From: a virus
Lineage: Duplodnaviria; Heunggongvirae; Uroviricota; Caudoviricetes
Strand: one strand, 5' to 3'
IMG/VR virus record: IMGVR_UViG_2563366926_000003
DNA: 21,813 bases
In this document: positions 6,886 through 21,813 of the stretch, piece by piece
How the letters are laid out: every line of letters starts with the position of its first letter
Numbering within the stretch: the first letter of the stretch is position 1
Made by a program: the position numbers and the translations under genes
Notes under the pieces: model-generated
Told to the model about the DNA's origin: nothing
Databases searched by the model: none
Seen by the model: the letters and a program-made list of their open reading frames with translations, nothing else

Positions 6886-7018
6886 TCTTTGGGACTCCTG
6901 GCTGATTAAGTATGTCGATAAGGCGTTTCCATCCGTCACGTAATTTACGGGTAATTCGTTCAAGTAAAGATTCGGAAGGGCAGCCAGCAACAGGCCACCC
7001 TGCAATGGCATATTGCAT
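6854..7018 (-). CDS. cIII: Lambda CIII (FtsH inhibitor that stabilises CII)
   Basis: 54-aa frame [54 protein letters not shown], an internal start within the 78-aa track ORF; recognised as lambda CIII. Confidence 0.85.
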   Translation of the reverse strand: MQYAIAGWPVAGCPSESLLERITRKLRDGWKRLIDILNQPGVPKNGSNTYGYPD

Positions 7019-7090
7019 GGTGTGCTCCTTATTTATACATAACGAAAAACGCCTCGAGTGAAGCGTTATTGGTATACGGTAAAGCCGCAC

Positions 7091-8055: not shown

Positions 8056-8637
8056 ATGAACAACTCATGGTGGCAGGAACTAATGCATTTTTTCCTGCAA
8101 GGAATGACACTTAAACAGTTGATTCATATGCTAATCATCCTGATCATATTGATTATTGTTATGCCGGTAAGCGTAAAAGAATGGATAAACCTGCATAATC
8201 CAGAAATCCTTCCTCATTACTGGATGTATTACATCCTGTTGTTTTGCGTTAGCTATGTGCTTAACGGCGTTGTTAATTCCGCTTATCACGCTGTGACTGA
8301 AAGAATTGAGGTATTCGTTGCTCAGAAGCGCAAATCTAAAGAAGAAAAATATGTGCAAGATTTGTTTGATTCGTTAACTCTTGGAGAAAGAGCGTATTTG
8401 GCATTCGCTGTAGCCGCTAATAACCAGCTACAAACGGAAAAGGGAGCTCATGAATCAATTTCATTGCTCAAAAAAGGACTCCTCGTTCGAAGGCCTCCTG
8501 CTGTTGGATATCCTGATACCGACCGTTTTGTTATTCCTGAAAGCTATAGACATGAGTGCTACATTCGGTTTGCCGGGAAGGCAGACAGCCTTATGGATGA
8601 ACTTATCGCTCAGGATAAGCATGGCAAAAACAAGTAA
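8056..8637 (+). CDS. sieB: Superinfection exclusion protein B
   Basis: 193-aa ORF with N-terminal hydrophobic segments (LIHMLIILIILIIVMPV; YWMYYILLFCVSYVLNGVV); sits between ral and N, convergent with the pL operon, as sieB does in lambda and P22. Confidence 0.8.
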   Translation: MNNSWWQELMHFFLQGMTLKQLIHMLIILIILIIVMPVSVKEWINLHNPEILPHYWMYYILLFCVSYVLNGVVNSAYHAVTERIEVFVAQKRKSKEEKYVQDLFDSLTLGERAYLAFAVAANNQLQTEKGAHESISLLKKGLLVRRPPAVGYPDTDRFVIPESYRHECYIRFAGKADSLMDELIAQDKHGKNK

Positions 8638-9404: not shown

Positions 9405-10304
9405 TTATTTGATTATTTCTTTTATAAAGACTTCTTTCGGTTGGTATTTTTTATCTGATGATTTGAGCTGGTACGTTATTGTTATATCAGCACGTACAGC
9501 AAATTTACCTGCAAAATCTGATGGGTTTACGTTGGGGCCAAGAACCATATTTACTCTTCGATCTATTAATCCAGGGATAACAGCAGCCCAACCTTTCTCT
9601 GGATTGTCGAGGTCTAATGCACGGATTTCAACATCAACATCAAAATGATCCTGAGTATATGACTCTGGTGTGAAGACAACTTCAGTTGGGGCTTTTTTAA
9701 TGGTTTCAGCGGGAATGGTCACTGTACCACCCCCTGTACCTATGACCATCGTAGATCCTTCGTCTGCCCTAGCTGGGGCAAGCGTCTTAATGGAACTTTT
9801 GGCAAGAGTCTTCTTATTGGTTACCGTGCTTTCTATGATTGCTTGAAGACGGTCAGGTGAAATATTAGCCTCACCGGCACCAATATTGATGATTGTATTG
9901 TTATTTGCTTCAAAGTGGGAGGTGTTGCTTGGAGCCATAGCCTTAGTTGCTAGAACTAAGCCATATCCAACCAGACCAATAACAACAGCACCAACGAGAG
10001 CGTTTCTCATTTTCCCATTTCCGATCTTTGCATGAGCGCCAGCAAGAAACTTGTCCATTTCTTCTTGGCTACCAAAGAGGAGTTTAATAACAATATCTTC
10101 ATAAAGGCTTCCTGCTTCTAATCGCGCAACATGCACCGATATATCAAGGATATTAGCCCCTGTCAGTTCCTGCAAAACACCTTCTGATTGTTTTGCGATG
10201 GCCTCCCACCCTTGAAGGGAGGTAATCACATCTTTGATGCTTACAGGTTCTTTAGTTGAATAATATATGTTTTCGGTAAAGGTTAAAGATAATTCTTGGG
10301 ACAT
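9405..10304 (-). CDS. Hypothetical membrane-anchored protein (one central TM helix) in the rexAB position of the immunity region; candidate superinfection-exclusion / abortive-infection gene
   Basis: 299-aa ORF with a good RBS (gaggg, 6 nt upstream of the ATG), co-oriented with and 130 bp downstream of cI; central hydrophobic helix ALVGAVVIGLVGYGLVLATKAMA; visibly more AT-rich than the lambda backbone; no family recognised. Confidence 0.7.
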   Translation of the reverse strand: MSQELSLTFTENIYYSTKEPVSIKDVITSLQGWEAIAKQSEGVLQELTGANILDISVHVARLEAGSLYEDIVIKLLFGSQEEMDKFLAGAHAKIGNGKMRNALVGAVVIGLVGYGLVLATKAMAPSNTSHFEANNNTIINIGAGEANISPDRLQAIIESTVTNKKTLAKSSIKTLAPARADEGSTMVIGTGGGTVTIPAETIKKAPTEVVFTPESYTQDHFDVDVEIRALDLDNPEKGWAAVIPGLIDRRVNMVLGPNVNPSDFAGKFAVRADITITYQLKSSDKKYQPKEVFIKEIIK

Positions 10305-10433: not shown

Positions 10434-11141
10434 TCATGAACTTTTCAGCCATTCCCTGGCCTCGATGTCATCTAGGTGGCGAGATTGCTTCAGAATACCA
10501 GCTACATACTCCACCTTTGCTACTTGATGATAAGGCAACGTTATTGGCCTGTGGTCTTGGTTGATGCTTGTAAATTGGTATTCTCCGTCTCTGTCATAGC
10601 CAAGAACCTTGATCATGTTGTGCCCTTCAATGGTTCTGACAAACACCTCATCACCTGGGAATACTTTGGTGTTAGGCTCAATGAGTACATATTCTCCTGA
10701 TTTTATTCTGGGCCACATGCTGTCTCCTTTTACACGAAGACCAAAGGCATCTGGATCATCGCTATAAATCTTGAGCCACCCATCGCGCTCTTCGGTCATC
10801 TCGATGGCACCATCAACACCAAGAATTGCCTCACCAACCACGCGCACTAACCCTTTTTTTAATTTGCCAACAATTGAAAAAGTATCTTCATCATTCGCTC
10901 CATTTAACGAAGTGCCGTGCTGAAGCCAAACAACATCAACGTTTAGAAATTTCGCAAGCGCATTCATTTTTTCCTGGCGTGGTAAAGACTCAGCATTAAA
11001 CCATTTGCTAACGCCTTTGGACGAAAGAGAAAGGGCACGGGCTATGGCCATTCCCCTACCATGTTCATCAAGACCAGCTTCTTTACAGGCTTGCGCTAGC
11101 CGCTGGGCGAATTCTTTGCGCACTTTTTCATTCTGAACCAT
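10434..11141 (-). CDS. cI: CI-type prophage repressor (N-terminal HTH, C-terminal S24 LexA-like autopeptidase); non-lambda immunity
   Basis: 235-aa ORF; C-terminal domain carries the S24 catalytic motif (GDSMWPRI ... MIKVL) for RecA-stimulated autocleavage; divergent from cro across an operator region; no SD upstream, so possibly leaderless like lambda cI from pRM. Confidence 0.88.
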   Translation of the reverse strand: MVQNEKVRKEFAQRLAQACKEAGLDEHGRGMAIARALSLSSKGVSKWFNAESLPRQEKMNALAKFLNVDVVWLQHGTSLNGANDEDTFSIVGKLKKGLVRVVGEAILGVDGAIEMTEERDGWLKIYSDDPDAFGLRVKGDSMWPRIKSGEYVLIEPNTKVFPGDEVFVRTIEGHNMIKVLGYDRDGEYQFTSINQDHRPITLPYHQVAKVEYVAGILKQSRHLDDIEAREWLKSS

Positions 11142-13722: not shown

Positions 13723-16700
13723 ATGACCACTGTGAATAAAAAGTTAAAAAAAACTGCATCTGGCGCGATTACATGGTCAGTAATTGTTACCCAGATATTA
13801 TCTCCAGTTTCTCTTTCTTTGATTCCGGCAAACAGTTTTGCATCGTCTGATAATAAAGATGTTACGCAAATTTATGCTAGCGATGAGCGTGCAAATAAAG
13901 TGGCCTCATTTGCAGTAAGTGCAGGTCAGAGTCTGGCGAATAATAATGCAAGTAGTTTTGCTGTAAATACTTTATCAACTCAGGCGACAAAAGAGGTCGT
14001 CGATTGGTTGCAACAATATGGCAATGCGCGCATCAAGCTTAATGTCGATAATTCTTTTTCCTTGAAGGATTCATCATTCGACTTTTTATATCCATGGCTG
14101 GATACTCAGGATTATGTGCTATTCAGTCAAACATCACTACATCGTACTGATGACCGTAATCAGACCAATATTGGTTTGGGGATTCGTCATTTCACTCCTG
14201 ATAATGCAATGTTGGGTGCGAATGTTTTCTACGATTATGATTTAAGTCGCAGCCACTCTCGCGCAGGTTTTGGGGTTGAGTACTGGAGAGATTATTTCAG
14301 GCTTGGTGTAAATACCTATTTTGGTTTATCTGACTGGAAGGACAGTCGGGATATTGATGATTATCTGGAAAGACCCGCAAATGGCTGGGATTTTTCTGCT
14401 GAAGGATGGCTACCTGCTTATCCGCAATTAGGGGCATCTATTCAGTTTGAAAAATATTATGGTAAAAATGTCGGATTATTTGGAAGCGATAATCTGCAGG
14501 AAAACCCTTACGCAGTTACTGGGGGAATTTCTTATACACCAGTTCCTCTGATTAAGTTTTCTGCACAGCATAAGCAAGGACAGAGCAACGTTCACGATAC
14601 AACCTTTGGTGTTGAGTTTAATTACCGCCCAGGCGTTTCCCTTGCTGAACAGCTTAGCAGTGACAATGTTGCAGTTATGCGAGAAGTCCAGAACCGGCGT
14701 TATGATTTTGTTGAACGAAATAACAACATTGTTCTGGAGTACAAGAAGAAGCATGCACTGAAAATCAGCTTACCAGAGTCTGTTCAGGGGGATGGCGAAT
14801 CAATCATCCCTGTAACACTGACAATCAACAATGCCAGTGGTGGTATCAAGTCTGTACAGTGGAATGATAGTGTATTCACTGCGGCTGGCGGTAAGATCAG
14901 TGGAAATGGCACATCATGGCAGGTCACTTTACCGGCTTATAAAAGCGAAGGTGTAAATTCGTGGAATGTTGGAGCCACGGTCCAGGATAATAGAGGCAAC
15001 GTTTCCAACTATGCGGTGATGAATATTAGCGTTATCAATAGTGGTGTCTCGACAGCGGATTCTTCTTTTATGTTGGATGGAGATTCATCTCCGACGATCT
15101 CTGCTGATGGTCAATCCACTCATCCAATAGTATTAAGCCTGAAAGACAGTAACGGTAAGGCATTAACCGGACTGGCTGATGACATTGAAATGTCAGTGGA
15201 ATTTACTGCGGATAGCAATAGTGCTCGACAGCGTGAAACGGTAACTGCCCCGTCATTAGGCGCGGTAGAGGAAATCTCTGCTGGTGTATATCGCTCTGTT
15301 CTGACTGCTGGTTCGCAGGCTGGCACAGTACGTGTAACAGCAAAAGTTCAGGGAAAAACCTTTACTTTGAATATTAAGCAGGCAGCCGTTATTGATAGTG
15401 ATGTCTCGACAGCGGATTCTTCTTTTACGTTGGATGGTGATTCGTCTCCGACGATCTCTGCTGATGGTCAATCCACTCATCCAATAGTATTAAGCCTGAA
15501 AGACAGTAACGGTAAGGCATTAACCGGACTGGCTGATGACATTGAAATGTCAGTGGAATTTACTGCGGATAGCAATAGTGCTCGACAGCGTGAAACGGTA
15601 ACTGCCCCGTCATTAGGCGCGGTAGAGGAAATCTCTGCTGGTGTATATCGCTCTGTTCTGACTGCTGGTTCGCAGGCTGGTACGGTACGTGTAACTGCAA
15701 AAGTAATGGATAAAACATTTACTCTCAGTATTAAGCAAACAGCAGCAACAGAACCTGATTCTGAGGTCAGTGCTGTTTTAACCGCTGCACCAGCAGAACA
15801 GGTAGTTGGTTACAATATCAATCTACAACTGGCAGTGAAGGATTCACAAGGAAATGCAATCACTGGTGATAACACTCTGAGCTTTTATGCTCTTAACCAG
15901 GCAGAAGGAGTCGAGTTTGGGGCTGTAACGGAAAAAGACGGTGTCTATAGCGCGACAGTAACTTCAAAACGAGCTGGTAAGATTCGGATCGGTGTTAAAT
16001 CGGGTAGTCACAATTTCTCAGGTATTGAGAAAGAAATCTCCTTTATTGAAGATCGAACACAGTTCGCATTCTCTCGTATTGAAGCCAGTAAAAATAATGC
16101 ATTGGCTGACGGCAAACAACAGAATACGGTGACTTTAAGCCTTGCAGATCGTTTCGGCAATGTTGTGCCCGGTTATGCTGTTACGCTGTCCTTACCTGCG
16201 GGGGTAACTCAAGTTGGTGGTGAACATGCTGTGTCAACTGACGAAAACGGTAATGCTGTTTTTGCGTTAATAAGCTCCACTCCGGGTTCTTACGTGATTA
16301 AAGCTCATGCTGGTTCTCAGATGTCTACTGAGTTAACAGTAACCTTTGCATCAAATATGATCGGAGCTTCACTGTCACTGACGCCTGGAAACAGTAGCTT
16401 AATTTCCAATATTCCTGCTAATGGTAAGGATGCTGCGGTATTGAATGTGCAACTGACAAATACGAATGCGTCGGTCAATGGACAGAAGATTCAGCTCATC
16501 ACCTCATCTGAAAGATTGTCTGTACCGACAAATATCGTGACTGATTCAACAGGGCATGTTTCCGTACCACTTACAACGGTGAGAGCTGGTGAGTATACGG
16601 TGGCTGCACGAGTGACTGACGGTTCCCATAGTGTGGAGTCTGGCAGCGTTAAGTTAACTTTTGTACCAGATGCTGCTTCCGCAGAACTTACTATGAGTAC

Positions 16701-17631
16701 ATCAAAACAGCAGATTGTGGCCGATGGTAGTGAAAGTGCAACAGTGGACATTCAGTTGGTTGATGCCAATAACAATGCGTTTACAGGCGATGTGGATTTA
16801 ACGGTTACACCATCGACGGGAGCATCATTGACCAGTAGTAAACTGCAGTTGGATGCTCATGGACAGGCAACAACGCAGTTCACAGCATCGAAATCAGGCC
16901 AGTACACAATTCAGGCTGAGTATGTTCTAGATGGGAAACGTATAACCGCAAGCAAAAATATTGATGCCGTGACGGATGTGAAGGAGGCTGTGTTGGAGAT
17001 CACATCATCTGCATCTTCGGCTGTAGTGAGCGATACCAACAATCTGATATTTACGTTACTGTTGAAAAGTACGTCAGGCGAAGTATTAAGTGGTCGAGTA
17101 TTGAATATCAAGGCATCTGGGCCGTCCAAATATGGTGCGTTGGTGGTTGATAAAACCACTGTAACGACTGATGAGTATGGTCTGGCTACGGTAAGCGTAC
17201 ATGGTCGAACGGCTGGTTCGTATAAATTAACGGCGACCTTAGATGAACTTGGCAGTGATGTTAGTGAGGTGAAGTCATTCTCTCTGTATGCTGATGAGGC
17301 AAATGGAGTATTGACACTGCATAAAGATGGAGGCTATGACACAGATGATGGTACTCCAGTGGGGGTTTATGCCCGATTTGTTGACCATTTCGGCAATCCG
17401 TTATCTGGTACGGTTGAGTTTTCTGCTGGTAGTGAAGATAGTCCAAACTCTCAACGGGTTAAAATGGAGCCTGCTACAGTAACGTTACACTGGACAGGTA
17501 ATGCAGCCTCGGAGTTCAGCACCTATGAAAGCGGTTATCACTGGATTAAGGCCAAAATAACGAACAGCAAAAATACATATGAGAAAACAATAAGGACTTA
17601 TGTTGTAAAGCTCCCTGAAAAGGATAGTTAA
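13723..17631 (+). CDS. Inverse autotransporter adhesin of the intimin/invasin family (signal peptide, outer-membrane beta-barrel, tandem bacterial Ig-like domains)
   Basis: 1302-aa ORF; N-terminal signal-like segment; residues ~100-340 resemble the intimin/invasin beta-barrel translocator (GIRHFTPDN...GFGVEYWRDYFRLGVNTYFG...FGVEFNYRPGV); the C-terminal ~950 aa is a series of repeated ~100-120-aa Ig-like modules including two near-identical copies; preceded by ~240 bp of very AT-rich DNA and followed by a strong terminator. Confidence 0.85.
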   Translation: MTTVNKKLKKTASGAITWSVIVTQILSPVSLSLIPANSFASSDNKDVTQIYASDERANKVASFAVSAGQSLANNNASSFAVNTLSTQATKEVVDWLQQYGNARIKLNVDNSFSLKDSSFDFLYPWLDTQDYVLFSQTSLHRTDDRNQTNIGLGIRHFTPDNAMLGANVFYDYDLSRSHSRAGFGVEYWRDYFRLGVNTYFGLSDWKDSRDIDDYLERPANGWDFSAEGWLPAYPQLGASIQFEKYYGKNVGLFGSDNLQENPYAVTGGISYTPVPLIKFSAQHKQGQSNVHDTTFGVEFNYRPGVSLAEQLSSDNVAVMREVQNRRYDFVERNNNIVLEYKKKHALKISLPESVQGDGESIIPVTLTINNASGGIKSVQWNDSVFTAAGGKISGNGTSWQVTLPAYKSEGVNSWNVGATVQDNRGNVSNYAVMNISVINSGVSTADSSFMLDGDSSPTISADGQSTHPIVLSLKDSNGKALTGLADDIEMSVEFTADSNSARQRETVTAPSLGAVEEISAGVYRSVLTAGSQAGTVRVTAKVQGKTFTLNIKQAAVIDSDVSTADSSFTLDGDSSPTISADGQSTHPIVLSLKDSNGKALTGLADDIEMSVEFTADSNSARQRETVTAPSLGAVEEISAGVYRSVLTAGSQAGTVRVTAKVMDKTFTLSIKQTAATEPDSEVSAVLTAAPAEQVVGYNINLQLAVKDSQGNAITGDNTLSFYALNQAEGVEFGAVTEKDGVYSATVTSKRAGKIRIGVKSGSHNFSGIEKEISFIEDRTQFAFSRIEASKNNALADGKQQNTVTLSLADRFGNVVPGYAVTLSLPAGVTQVGGEHAVSTDENGNAVFALISSTPGSYVIKAHAGSQMSTELTVTFASNMIGASLSLTPGNSSLISNIPANGKDAAVLNVQLTNTNASVNGQKIQLITSSERLSVPTNIVTDSTGHVSVPLTTVRAGEYTVAARVTDGSHSVESGSVKLTFVPDAASAELTMSTSKQQIVADGSESATVDIQLVDANNNAFTGDVDLTVTPSTGASLTSSKLQLDAHGQATTQFTASKSGQYTIQAEYVLDGKRITASKNIDAVTDVKEAVLEITSSASSAVVSDTNNLIFTLLLKSTSGEVLSGRVLNIKASGPSKYGALVVDKTTVTTDEYGLATVSVHGRTAGSYKLTATLDELGSDVSEVKSFSLYADEANGVLTLHKDGGYDTDDGTPVGVYARFVDHFGNPLSGTVEFSAGSEDSPNSQRVKMEPATVTLHWTGNAASEFSTYESGYHWIKAKITNSKNTYEKTIRTYVVKLPEKDS
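15030..15743 (+). repeat. Near-identical 357-bp (119-codon) in-frame tandem duplication inside the adhesin gene
   Basis: The unit starting gtctcgacagcggattcttctttt occurs at 15046 and again at 15403 (period 357 bp); the central ~280 bp differ at only a handful of positions; encodes VSTADSSF.LDGDSSPTISADGQSTHPIVLSLKDSNGKALTGLADDIEMSVEFTADSNSARQRETVTAPSLGAVEEISAGVYRSVLTAGSQAGTVRVTAKV twice. Confidence 0.92.
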
Positions 17632-17670: not shown

Positions 17671-18153
17671 ATTGAGACGGACTGTTTCTTAAATTCACTT
17701 ACGTTAGATATGAACTGGTTATTTTTTATAACAATAAAAGACTTTTGATTTTTGAATATCAGTAAGTAATAATGATTTACGTCGACAGACTGAACATCTG
17801 TTGGTGACTTCTGCGCTAAACGGGGACGTTTATGCGCACATACAATCTAAACTCTCTTCTCTCTTCACAGATGCAGAAATGCACCTGCGATTCTTTGCAT
17901 CCAACGTTTGACCTCTGCGGAGGTGAAGCGTGAACCTCCCACAAGATGGCATCAAATTACATCGCGGTAACTTCACCGCTATCGGTCGGCAGATCCAGCC
18001 TTATCTGGAGGACGGCAAATGCTTTCGCATGGTGCTTAAACCGTGGCGCGAGAGACGCAGTCTAGACTGGCCCCCTGAATCTCCAGACAACCAGTATCAC
18101 TTAAATAAGTGATAGTCTTAATACTAGTTTTTAGACTAGTCATTGGAGAACAG

Positions 18154-18519
18154 ATGATTGATGTCTTAGGGCCGGAGAAACGCAGACGGCGTACCACACA
18201 GGAAAAGATCGCAATTGTTCAGCAGAGCTTTGAACCGGGGATGACGGTCTCCCTCGTTGCCCGGCAACATGGTGTAGCAGCCAGCCAGTTATTTCTCTGG
18301 CGTAAGCAATACCAGGAAGGAAGTCTTACTGCTGTCGCCGCCGGAGAACAGGTTGTTCCTGCCTCTGAACTTGCTGCCGCCATGAAGCAGATTAAAGAAC
18401 TCCAGCGCCTGCTCGGCAAGAAAACGATGGAAAATGAACTCCTCAAAGAAGCCGTTGAATATGGACGGGCAAAAAAGTGGATAGCGCACGCGCCCTTATT
18501 GCCCGGGGATGGGGAGTAA
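18154..18519 (+). CDS. insC: IS2 OrfA (InsC) transposase regulatory/DNA-binding subunit
   Basis: 121-aa frame [56 protein letters not shown]... with RBS ggagaa; recognised as IS2 InsC. Confidence 0.93.
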
Positions 18520-19382
18520 GCTTAGTCAGCCGTTGTCTCCGGGTGTCGCGTGCGCAGTTGCACGTCATTCTCAGACGAACCGATGACTGGATGGATGGCC
18601 GCCGCAGTCGTCACACTGATGATACGGATGTGCTTCTCCGTATACACCATGTTATCGGAGAGCTGCCCACGTATGGTTATCGTCGGGTATGGGCGCTGCT
18701 TCGCAGACAGGCAGAACTTGATGGTATGCCTGCGATCAATGCCAAACGTGTTTACCGGATCATGCGCCAGAATGCGCTGTTGCTTGAGCGAAAACCTGCT
18801 GTACCGCCATCGAAACGGGCACATACAGGCAGAGTGGCCGTGAAAGAAAGCAATCAGCGATGGTGCTCTGACGGGTTCGAGTTCTGCTGTGATAACGGAG
18901 AGAGACTGCGTGTCACGTTCGCGCTGGACTGCTGTGATCGTGAGGCACTGCACTGGGCGGTCACTACCGGCGGCTTCAACAGTGAAACAGTACAGGACGT
19001 CATGCTGGGAGCGGTGGAACGCCGCTTCGGCAACGATCTTCCGTCGTCTCCACTGGAGTGGCTGACGGATAATGGTTCATGCTACCGGGCTAATGAAACA
19101 CGCCAGTTCGCCCGGATGTTGGGACTTGAACCGAAGAACACGGCGGTGCGGAGTCCGGAGAGTAACGGAATAGCAGAGAGCTTCGTGAAAACGATAAAGC
19201 GTGACTACATCAGTATCATGCCCAAACCAGACGGGTTAACGGCAGCAAAGAACCTTGCAGAGGCGTTCGAGCATTATAACGAATGGCATCCGCATAGTGC
19301 GCTGGGTTATCGCTCGCCACGGGAATATCTGCGGCAGCGGGCTTGTAATGGGTTAAGTGATAACAGATGTCTGGAAATATAG
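18477..19382 (+). CDS. insD: IS2 OrfB (InsD) transposase catalytic domain (DDE); expressed as an OrfAB fusion by -1 frameshifting
   Basis: 301-aa ORF recognised as IS2 InsD; slippery A6G motif (aaaaaag, 18470-18476) at the orfA/orfB overlap. Confidence 0.93.
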
Positions 19383-19720
19383 GGGCAAATCCACAGTCTT
19401 TCCCAGAATGCACTCAGCCACATGTGGTACAGCGAAATCAGTGAATACCTCATCAGCAGGGGTAAAACGTTCGCCACTCCAGCTTGGGTAAAAGATGCTC
19501 TCAAACACACATATCTCGGTTATGAAACCAAAGACCTGGTTGATGTCGTAACCGGTGATATCACCACTATCCAGTCGTTACGCCATACCTCCGACCTTGA
19601 TACCGGAGAGATGTATGTCTTCCTGTGTAAGGTTGAAGCCTGGGCGATGAATATTGGCTGCCACCTGACTATTCCGCAGAGCTGCGAGTTCCAGCTGCTG
19701 CGTGATAAGCAGGAGGCGTA

Positions 19721-19891
19721 ATGGCTACACCGCTTATTCGTGTCATGAACGGACACATCTACAAAGTACCAAATCGTCGTAAGCGTAGGCCTGAGCTGAA
19801 ACCATCCGAAATACCAACACTGCTCGGATATACCGCCAGCCTGGTTGATAAAAAATGGTTGCGACTGGCAGCAAGGAGGAATCATGGCTGA
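19721..19891 (+). CDS. ninE: NinE-family small protein
   Basis: 56-aa [59 protein letters not shown]; RBS aggagg; ATG overlaps the ninB stop (TAATG); basic NinE-like motif pattern; gene order as in DLP12 (ybcN-ninE-ybcO-rusA-ylcG-Q). Confidence 0.6.
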   Translation: MATPLIRVMNGHIYKVPNRRKRRPELKPSEIPTLLGYTASLVDKKWLRLAARRNHG

Positions 19892-20670: not shown

Positions 20671-20755
20671 AGTCAGAGATAACAATCAACTAATACTGTT
20701 TTGTTGATTTTTGCTTGTAATTGGCGTTCTGGTCTGAGTTTTGTGGAGTAAGTTG

Positions 20756-21133
20756 ATGCGTGATATTCAGATGGTTCTTGAGCGTTGGGGAGCGTGGGCG
20801 GCTAATAATCATGAAGATGTGACCTGGTCGTCCATTGCCGCCGGTTTTAAGGGATTAATTCCTTCAAAAGTAAAATCTCGCCCGCAATGTTGTGACGATG
20901 ACGCGATGATCATTTGCGGGTGCATGGCCCGTCTGAAAAAGAACAACAGCGATTTGCATGATTTATTGGTGGACTATTATGTCGGCGGCATGACTTTTAT
21001 GGCGCTTGCACGTAAGCATGGGCGATCTGATTGTTGGGTTGGCAGGATGCTCCAGAAAGCTGAGGGCGTAGTGGAGGGTATGCTGATGGTGTTGGATCTC
21101 CGATTGGAGATGGATGCTGATTGTTCGAAATAA
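20756..21133 (+). CDS. quuD: Q late-gene antiterminator, phage 82 / DLP12 QuuD type
   Basis: 125-aa frame [81 protein letters not shown]... (ATG at 20756 with RBS ggag; the track ORF starts at an upstream TTG); recognised as the phage-82 Q family. Confidence 0.9.
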
Positions 21134-21179
21134 TTAAAGGAAAAGTTGCTGTCTGATTCTCATTAGTCTAACATTTTAA

Positions 21180-21215
21180 ATGTTGGAATCGCAACGTAGT
21201 TATTATCATATAACA
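21180..21215 (+). promoter_or_regulatory. Possible late promoter pR' / Q-utilisation region
   Basis: Between Q and the terminator: TTGGAA, about 15-17 nt, then TATCAT/CATATAAC; assigned mostly by position. Confidence 0.3.
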
Positions 21216-21231
21216 GCTTGTTTCCTGATTT

Positions 21232-21261
21232 AGCCAGCCTCCCCAAAGGCTGGTTTTTTTC
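21232..21261 (+). terminator. tR'-like intrinsic terminator downstream of Q
   Basis: Hairpin ccagcct-ccccaa-aggctgg (extendable to ~9 bp) followed by ttttttt. Confidence 0.75.
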
Positions 21262-21288
21262 TAATAAGTATTATTTCGGGTAGGGATT

Positions 21289-21813
21289 TTATTGTTTAAC
21301 CCATAATAATTCATTGACATTGAATCCCAACTTTTGAGCGGTTCGCACATAGTCTGCTTTTACTTTATCTGGAATAGTTGGGGTCCTTGCCAGAATCCAT
21401 AGGTATTCTCTGTTCGGACCACTGACAAGAGCATACTTATACTCATCATCCAGTTTGATTACATTATAGCCACCATAGAAGGGGCCAAAAAACGAAACCT
21501 TCAACGCTGCAGTTTTAGTATCTCCAGTAAAGTATGCTTTACCTTCGCTCTCGCTCCATTTATTTTTCGTTGGATCGTATCCACGGTTAAGTACACGAAT
21601 CCCTCCGTCGTTCCGTTTTCCATAAGTAGCGCTGACCTGTTCCAGACCACGTTCGAACCGGTTCTCGAGGCGAGCTATTTCATACCACTTTCCGAGGTAG
21701 CGGTTGGCGTCAAAATTTGTAATCGGCTGCACACCTTTAGGTGGTGTCGGGGCCTTACATGCTATAAGAGTGAAAGAGAGTGCAATGCCAGTCAACACAG
21801 GCCATAACTTCAT
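21289..21813 (-). CDS. Bacterial lipocalin (Blc-like) outer-membrane lipoprotein; cargo gene convergent with the late operon
   Basis: 174-aa ORF with lipoprotein signal peptide and lipobox (MKLWPVLTGIALSFTLIAC); lipocalin motifs (NFDANRYLGKWYEIARLENRFERG ... SFFGPFYGGYNVIKLDDEYKYALVSGPNREYLWILARTPT) recalled as matching E. coli Blc; start codon at the last base of the window. Confidence 0.85.
   Translation of the reverse strand: MKLWPVLTGIALSFTLIACKAPTPPKGVQPITNFDANRYLGKWYEIARLENRFERGLEQVSATYGKRNDGGIRVLNRGYDPTKNKWSESEGKAYFTGDTKTAALKVSFFGPFYGGYNVIKLDDEYKYALVSGPNREYLWILARTPTIPDKVKADYVRTAQKLGFNVNELLWVKQ

Follow-up and report, generated by a model that had tools for sequence, protein, structure and literature searches.

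The gene that closes the analysed stretch of DNA (21,813 nucleotides, referred to here as the window) is a real lipocalin gene that is under selection. We consider it, with a probability of about 0.55, to be a moron of lambda-like coliphages that was captured together with its neighbour rudS and that would be expressed in lysogens from its own promoter, giving a lipid-binding lipoprotein at the periplasmic face of the outer membrane. Taken together, the open reading frame (ORF), its family matches, the adjacent Q gene and the terminator form an arrangement far beyond chance.

Lambda morons are predominantly genes for membrane proteins, and a survey of 19 gut lambda phages named "blc, a bacterial lipocalin" as one of the morons that occur in more than 50% of them (Mathieu et al. 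2020, PMC6969025). Phage records already label the gene "Lipocalin Blc", and it belongs to PHROG 2809, a family with no assigned function. The gut-lambda "blc" moron represented by gp65 of phage 1H12 is the same gene at the same position, with 97% protein identity, and the window carries another allele of it. A literature search returned no functional study of a phage lipocalin; a paper on phiv142-3 and one on ESBL strains from turkey have no bearing on the phage lipocalin, since their subject is host lipocalin-2 or different genes. The gene, its annotation and its moron status are already public, and the finding is correct and largely ordinary.

The additions made here are modest: assignment of the gene to a clade, recognition of a lipocalin-RudS cassette and its chromosomal origin, an estimate of selection, and a pointer to detection of the protein by proteomics. 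About one fifth of complete E. coli genomes carry this phage-borne lipocalin, mostly adjoining the gene for an experimentally active tRNA 4-thiouridine desulfidase, and a "Blc" reported in proteomic or genomic studies of E. coli may be the prophage protein. Membership of clade B and joint travel with RudS lead to testable ideas that involve envelope lipid damage and near-UV or oxidative stress.

The lipocalin gene and its product

The features of the lipocalin gene and of the segment beside it are the following.

20756..21133, + strand: Q-family late antiterminator gene, 125 aa by the RefSeq start (Phage_antitermQ, 2.5e-51)
21146..21174, + strand: tentative late promoter pR' (TTGCTG, 17-nt spacer, TAACAT), read from the sequence
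21232..21262, + strand: intrinsic terminator tR', with a G+C-rich stem of 8-9 bp, a 6-nt loop and a T7 tail
21289..21813, - strand: lipocalin lipoprotein gene, Blc family clade B, complete, 174 aa plus stop
21292..21756, - strand: mature lipocalin domain, residues 20-174, with eight beta-strands and a C-terminal helix in the AlphaFold model
21757..21813, - strand: lipoprotein signal peptide, residues 1-19 (MKLWPVLTGIALSFTLIAC), read directly from the sequence
21757..21768, - strand: lipobox L-I-A-C, its Cys19 aligned with the lipidated Cys19 of K-12 Blc

The window closes with the ATG start codon of the lipocalin ORF as its final triplet. In genomes carrying the window in full, RefSeq annotates the identical coding sequence with the identical start as WP_000780581.1 ("lipocalin family protein"), and an AGGA ribosome-binding site is found 8 nt 5' of the ATG, just past the window end. 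A preliminary description of this DNA had reported a complete gene at 21289, and the intact 174-aa ORF with the RefSeq start confirms it.

The assignment to the Blc family made in that description is equally well founded. The product matches Pfam Lipocalin_2 (PF08212; E=7e-44, 149.7 bits against a cutoff of 24), and it scores 316.1 bits with NCBIfam NF007786 / PRK10477, "outer membrane lipoprotein Blc", for which the curated cutoff is 267, the match covering residues 1-174 of 176. The E. coli Blc crystal-structure sequences in the PDB are matched at E=3.5e-69. The alignment that had been proposed as a measure of divergence from E. coli Blc was carried out with the K-12 protein (from NC_000913), and gave 60% identity over 174 aa with zero gaps. 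The glycine and tryptophan of the lipocalin G-x-W motif (G41 and W43), along with R143 near the end of the barrel, show no variation in two alignments, one with 20 and one with 32 homologues, and the phage protein and Blc have the same core strands (KVSFFGPFYGGYNVI, WYEIAR, RFERG and YLWIL-RTP). Several residues in loops near the barrel opening differ from those of K-12 Blc, with LEN in place of FDH at residues 49-51 and PTKNKW in place of PDRGMW at residues 81-86, so the ligand preference of the two proteins may differ.

The N-terminus, MKLWPVLTGIALSFTLIA-C19-K20, begins with a positively charged MK, which is followed by a hydrophobic core and then by the lipobox. The lipoprotein type given in the preliminary description is upheld by the L-I-A-C19 sequence, by the alignment of its cysteine with Cys19 of Blc, and by the residue at position +2, which is Lys and not Asp, the signal for inner-membrane retention. 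Cys19 is invariant in the 20 Blc homologues aligned. Lipidation of the lipocalin and its sorting to the outer membrane are predicted from the lipobox and the +2 Lys.

The AlphaFold model of the lipocalin (mean pLDDT 81) has 8 strands and a helix at residues 149-161. Foldseek superimposed it on the Blc structures 1QWD, 2ACO and 3MBT with TM scores of 0.82-0.96 and rmsd values of 1.1-1.5 Å; a plant TIL with bound heme and lipocalins that bind biliverdin are further structural neighbours. E. coli Blc (b4149), to which these three structures belong, shares with the phage protein its length, signal peptide, Cys19, 8-stranded barrel and C-terminal helix. It differs in its frd-ampC-blc-gdx context, in its membership of a separate clade and in the residues of the barrel-opening loops.

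Phage cargo between Q and the lysis genes

The lipocalin gene lies on the - strand, and Q and tR' lie on the + strand, the convergent arrangement that had been recognised at the outset. Q corresponds to WP_001204777.1 of RefSeq ("antiterminator Q family protein"), and the ORF list contains an alternative, longer version that starts with TTG at 20741. It is preceded on the plus strand by the tail of a nin region (ninE, ybcO, rusA, ylcG), and is 88% identical to QuuD of DLP12 and to Q of phage 434. In DLP12 and phage 434 the slot after this 88%-identical Q is taken by the nmpC/lc porin gene, which is likewise convergent and likewise encodes an outer-membrane protein, although the nmpC product is unrelated, being a beta-barrel porin and not a lipoprotein lipocalin. 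The slot is variable, in that related phages with the same Q type hold either nmpC or nothing there.

The interval between Q and the lipocalin gene has the classical layout of pR', a short RNA and tR'. The candidate pR', which has 7 of 12 consensus matches, was not among the sites returned by the promoter scan, and it is assigned as such because it sits between Q and the terminator; it is kept in IdasGreatGrand and nearly so in Lambda_ev087. The terminator was also recognised by a terminator scan (positions 8533-8556 of the extended locus L001, equal to 21232-21255 of the window), and its RNA fold has an energy of -24.1 kcal/mol (z = -3.85). Only 27 nt separate tR' from the 3' end of the lipocalin gene. 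The minus-strand version of the hairpin has no U tract behind it, which makes it a poor terminator for the lipocalin transcript. Rfam searches of the whole window and the neighbouring locus, together with a permissive scan of the interval from Q through the lipocalin gene to rudS, returned no known sRNA for the pR'-tR' transcript; the Rfam matches that fell on the terminator hairpin were at chance level and were discarded.

Twelve sequenced lambdoid phages, among them IdasGreatGrand, phage 1H12 and members of the Lambda_ev series, carry the 1.1-kb block from Q to the lipocalin gene at 95-99.6% identity. Among the 5426 complete E. coli genomes searched, 1025 (about 19%) have the block at a coverage of at least 80%, and the lipocalin gene and rudS were matched together in 1151 genomes. 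The window as a whole is a lambda-like prophage adjoining ybhC, and the lipocalin module was also found on a Qin-like backbone. In phages and prophages, the genes past the window end are, in order, a divergent "YbgA family" gene, an AraC/YdeO-like regulator, holin, lysozyme, Rz, bor/iss and terminase, the lysis genes beginning 2.4 kb downstream in relatives. The cargo position between Q and the lysis genes, proposed before these flanks were available, is established by that gene order. Base composition also sets the pair apart: the lipocalin gene has a GC content of 44% and a GC3 of 41%, and rudS a GC3 of 40%, as against 62% for terminase and 52-62% for Q, rusA and terL.

The one circumstance named beforehand as fatal to this interpretation was that the prophage might terminate before the lipocalin gene, leaving a host chromosomal gene outside its end. 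We regard that explanation as excluded, with a residual chance that is negligible, since packaged and sequenced phage genomes carry the same block, lysis genes, bor/iss and terminase follow the gene, and it occurs on different lambdoid backbones.

A second + strand terminator is located just before the holin gene (L001 11409-11430). With tR' it would bracket the cargo block, and could keep transcription of rudS and the AraC-type gene off the lysis genes in a lysogen. The proteins Bor/Iss, Cor and Llp are, like the lipocalin, small prophage-encoded lipoproteins, and they are expressed from the prophage. The phages with the lipocalin gene also have bor/iss, which likewise runs against late transcription; none of these proteins has sequence or fold kinship with the lipocalin.

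Origin of the gene and its rudS neighbour

The best non-phage relatives of the lipocalin, at 75-82% identity, come from Cedecea, Scandinavium, Leclercia, Enterobacter, Pantoea and Klebsiella. To place it among chromosomal Blc genes, 80 species-representative loci were surveyed by tblastn with reference neighbours, and in this set two Blc clades separate cleanly.

Clade A: 73-98% identity to K-12 Blc; 57-62% to the phage protein; frd-ampC-blc-gdx locus
Clade B: 62-64% identity to K-12 Blc; 78-82% to the phage protein; always divergent from an MlrA-like MerR gene

Because the phage protein shares 57-62% identity with the clade defined by synteny with ampC and 78-82% with the clade linked to MerR and RudS, it is, by sequence comparison, neither an orthologue nor a duplicate of the ampC-linked blc of E. 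coli. The preliminary description had called it a paralogue of chromosomal blc; the family was right, but the term is imprecise for a clade-B gene whose product is just 60% identical to E. coli Blc.

The clade-B MerR-type proteins consist of MerR, MlrA_helical and MlrA_C domains, and have no B12-binding domain. What lies beyond this regulator gene varies. In Leclercia, Enterobacter and a metagenome contig it is followed by a transthyretin-like gene and RudS, and in Cedecea and Scandinavium by an operon of SnoaL, SDR, amine oxidase, DUF1365, CMAS and DUF2878 genes; the clade-B locus of Buttiauxella brennerae has both the RudS and the SnoaL-SDR-amine oxidase arrangements. The clade-B Blc proteins of Enterobacter, Leclercia, Cedecea, Scandinavium and Buttiauxella have the same length as the phage protein, and their genes have a divergent neighbourhood with a RudS-type gene.

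The phage gene also has such a neighbour. Just beyond the window end, and divergent from the lipocalin gene across a 192-bp intergenic region, lies rudS, the gene otherwise annotated as "YbgA family". Its product has TudS and DUF1722 domains and is 73% identical to the RudS of the clade-B locus. In phage 1H12, gp65 adjoins gp66 (RudS_vir), which experimentally removes 4-thiouridine from tRNA, and RudS is otherwise absent from E. coli (PMC11417400). Unlike the clade-B loci, the phage version lacks the MerR/MlrB-like regulator gene and the transthyretin-like gene and is much more AT-rich, the clade-B chromosomal relatives having a GC3 of 66-75% compared with about 40% for the lipocalin gene and rudS of the phage. 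Synonymous sites are saturated between the phage and chromosomal copies, so the capture must be old or the true donor unsampled. From these comparisons, the most plausible reading of the phage cargo is that the lipocalin gene and rudS came as a pair from a clade-B locus and that the regulator was lost. Such a locus would have been of the Enterobacter/Leclercia/Cedecea type, in which the lipocalin gene stands opposite a divergent mlrB-like regulator gene and rudS, and the two cargo genes would have been taken up jointly.

Both MlrB and MlrA repress orf319, the RudS gene of Salmonella (bioRxiv 10.1101/2021.03.09.434593). An MlrA-like dyad, AAATTG-N21-CAATTT, located 5' of the phage rudS was considered and set aside: 0.17 occurrences are expected per 17 kb, and 31 of 200 shuffled sequences contained at least one match. 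The right arm of the dyad is imperfect in ev087-type alleles, and the region upstream of the phage rudS is not alignable with chromosomal rudS promoters.

Expression and possible function in the lysogen

Comparison of the lipocalin alleles of the window and of Lambda_ev087 gave 20 synonymous against 5 nonsynonymous substitutions (dN/dS 0.065), and the ORF is intact in most carriers, which number more than 1000 genomes and 12 phages, a few copies being truncated or disrupted by IS elements. The phage alleles are under strong purifying selection. In the spacer between the lipocalin gene and rudS, the ~130 nt next to the lipocalin gene differ by about 5%, as against 17% at synonymous sites.

The exact protein has been detected. 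WP_000780581.1, listed as "Blc" of the outer membrane, was quantified by TMT proteomics in a culture of the lysogen E. coli CCUG 70745. In this single study of a single strain, its level increased 1.99- and 2.98-fold when meropenem had been present for 15 min at 128 and 192 µg/mL, respectively (PMC13459554). Its detection fits expression outside lytic growth, and the rise after the beta-lactam could reflect prophage induction or copy number, not regulation. The restriction to lysogeny and the roles in exclusion or serum resistance suggested in the preliminary description are hypothetical.

The promoter that the preliminary description had expected past the window end was less forthcoming. That region contains the ribosome-binding site and candidate -10 elements, namely CATACT 38 nt 5' of the ATG and TAATAT and TATAGT further up, with no good -35 element among them, and no convincing sigma-70 promoter was seen upstream of the lipocalin gene. 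A promoter scan returned 13 sites, compared with 10.6±3.5 expected from shuffled sequence, and none of them was convincing for the lipocalin gene. Chromosomal clade-B loci share the sequence ATGAAG-N17-(C)TACACTTAA upstream of the lipocalin gene, of which (C)TACACTTAA is presumably a sigma-S-like -10 element. A search for the homologous promoter in the phage gave no more than CATACTTAC, about as far from the ATG, a weak match in a loose alignment that we do not retain.

On the reading that we prefer, the lipocalin gene would be transcribed in the uninduced lysogen from its own promoter within the conserved 192-bp region shared with rudS. The short transcript made constitutively from pR' would be halted by tR' 27 nt short of the lipocalin 3' end, which would shield the gene. 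Sec would export the precursor, Cys19 would receive the lipid, and Lol would carry the protein to the side of the outer membrane that faces the periplasm, where it would bind hydrophobic ligands such as lysophospholipids or fatty acids in the manner of Blc, and so help the lysogen envelope to withstand lipid damage or stress. During lytic growth, RNA polymerase modified by Q would pass tR' and run antisense over the lipocalin gene, and its expression should fall. By analogy with Blc, a periplasmic lipid-binding role in lysogens is the most likely function. According to a summary in PMC8177097, that protein is an outer-membrane lipoprotein that faces the periplasm, binds lysophospholipids with nanomolar affinity and is induced by starvation and high osmolarity; the same paper describes its physiological role as debated between lysophospholipids and heme.

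A further proposal, which refines this explanation and which we put forward tentatively, treats the lipocalin and rudS as a joint stress cassette, a fragment of an MlrB/LitR-type regulon. A clade-B Blc and RudS from an MlrB-type locus, spread by phages to about one fifth of E. coli genomes, might together defend the cell against near-UV or oxidative stress, possibly under the control of MlrA/RpoS. RudS would erase the near-UV-sensitive s4U of tRNA and the lipocalin would scavenge oxidised lipids or lyso-lipids of the envelope, giving near-UV or photo-oxidative protection outside the gut. In the phage, as in the closest chromosomal loci, the two genes stand side by side and point away from each other. 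In Cedecea, Scandinavium and Buttiauxella, this lipocalin clade is found beside a lipid-modifying operon with CMAS, amine oxidase and DUF1365 genes, and RudS_vir, which phage 1H12 encodes next to a lipocalin of 97% identity, has tRNA s4U desulfidase activity (PMC11417400). Other bacterial lipocalins help to detoxify lipid peroxyl radicals (PMC9113575). However, the RudS paper (PMC11417400) makes no mention of a lipocalin, and adjacency may mean co-capture only. Moreover, the enterobacterial regulator is MlrA/MlrB-like and without a B12-binding domain, so that light control there would be hypothetical, and the phage has no regulator gene at all.

Functions at the cell surface or in heme metabolism are less probable. 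A prophage-encoded outer-membrane lipoprotein in a moron slot, convergent with the late genes as bor is, might block an outer-membrane receptor or the DNA entry of competing phages in the manner of Cor or Llp, and the predominance of membrane proteins among lambda morons (PMC6969025) accords with superinfection exclusion or receptor masking. We nevertheless think it unlikely, because Blc faces the periplasm and not the surface (PMC8177097), the fold and core of the phage protein are those of the ligand-binding Blc, the sequences nearest to it belong to chromosomal genes with housekeeping or stress functions in many Enterobacterales, and no PADLOC defence model was matched at E<=0.01. Slightly more doubtful still is periplasmic binding of heme or porphyrin, by which the lipocalin would aid heme trafficking or detoxification in the lysogen. 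Blc binds heme in vitro (PMC8177097), and the heme-bound plant TIL and the biliverdin-binding lipocalins are among the structural neighbours of the model, but the heme role is only a proposal for Blc itself, and the genomic neighbours suggest lipid and tRNA stress instead. There is, finally, little to recommend an inert, decaying passenger, or an element that acts in cis through convergent transcription into pR' and Q. Antisense read-through as far as pR' and Q is conceivable, given how weakly the hairpin should stop transcription that comes from the lipocalin gene; against both versions stand the dN/dS of 0.065, the ORF that has stayed intact in most of the more than 1000 genomes and 12 phages, the detection of the protein by proteomics (PMC13459554), and the conservation of the signal peptide, the lipobox and all core motifs.

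RudS and an AraC-family regulator beside the lipocalin

The neighbors of the phage lipocalin gene were followed beyond the window in two related loci, L001 and L002, where a divergently transcribed gene and a regulator gene precede the holin gene.

L001 9307..10266 (equivalent to window 22006..22965, just past its end), + strand: rudS, encoding TudS and DUF1722 domains
L002 7586..8317, + strand, and L001 10618..11342, frameshifted: AraC-family regulator gene, between rudS and the holin gene
L001 9222..9254, + strand: dyad AAATTG-N21-CAATTT in the lipocalin-rudS spacer, immediately 5' of a TACACA -10-like element preceding rudS

Divergent from the lipocalin gene lies rudS, which encodes a tRNA 4-thiouridine desulfidase; the homologue in phage 1H12, gp66, has been tested experimentally as "RudS_vir" (PMC11417400). 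RudS was reported to be absent from E. coli (PMC11417400); in contrast, the lipocalin and rudS pair has matches in 1151 of 5426 complete E. coli genomes, of which 1047 contain 80% or more of its sequence. The AraC-family gene 3' of rudS is AT-rich (GC 32%), its product is similar to YdeO/GadX, and it is intact in phages and a pseudogene in some prophages. This regulator resembles the acid-resistance regulators Psr/PatE, which are likewise encoded by prophages.

The spacer dyad and MlrA-like regulators

The spacer dyad is reminiscent of the MlrA operator. The dyad alone is without significance, with 0.17 occurrences expected per 17 kb, and it is imperfect in alleles of the type found in phage Lambda_ev087. 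Both MlrB and MlrA act as repressors of the RudS gene of Salmonella, orf319 (bioRxiv 10.1101/2021.03.09.434593). Chromosomal Blc relatives of clade B (78-82% identical to the phage lipocalin) adjoin an MlrA-like regulator in Cedecea (L008), Scandinavium (L009) and Buttiauxella (L019), where the regulator heads a SnoaL-SDR-amine oxidase-DUF1365-CMAS-DUF2878 operon. This operon resembles the Rhodobacter gene clusters for furan/cyclopropane fatty acids that belong to the singlet-oxygen response. In these loci, ATGAAG-N17-CTACACTTAA is common to the promoters of the lipocalin genes.

Lipocalins in other sequence records

L092 3965..4480: Blc-type lipoprotein gene, 54% identical, in Morganella phage IME1369_01

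This temperate phage is unrelated, and its lipocalin gene differs in position, with the lysis genes on one side and the small terminase gene on the other, and in sharing a strand with the late genes. A Blc-type gene in a different slot of an unrelated phage suggests that phages recruited lipocalins independently. Separately, a 2113-bp contig (L012, JARKOR010000135.1) binned as "Candidatus Nanosynbacter" carries the Q (100%) and lipocalin (99%) of the E. coli phage; this is almost certainly due to MAG contamination.

Other genes and elements of the prophage

13723..17631, + strand: inverse autotransporter gene (1302 aa), with an IAT_beta domain and repeated Big_1/Invasin_D3
17930..18067 and 19401..19721: ybcN fragments
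about 18100..19400: IS2 element (transposase CDS 18160..19388)
9405..10304, - strand: orphan ORF (299 aa), directly 3' of the cI-like S24 repressor gene (10434..11141)
6973..7031, - strand: Lambda_thermo, the cIII thermoregulator RNA element (Rfam, 88.5 bits, E=1.8e-20)

The inverse autotransporter is of the intimin/invasin type; its gene is a large, adhesin-like piece of cargo that is unusually placed, after the replication gene P and before the nin region. Within the nin region, IS2 interrupts a ybcN-like gene, and related genomes without this insertion cover 94% of the window, as two pieces. The orphan ORF gave no significant hit in Pfam and none in PADLOC. It sits where lambda has rexAB, and it could be a gene for exclusion or defence that is as yet uncharacterised. 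The Lambda_thermo match confirms an early-left operon of lambda type.
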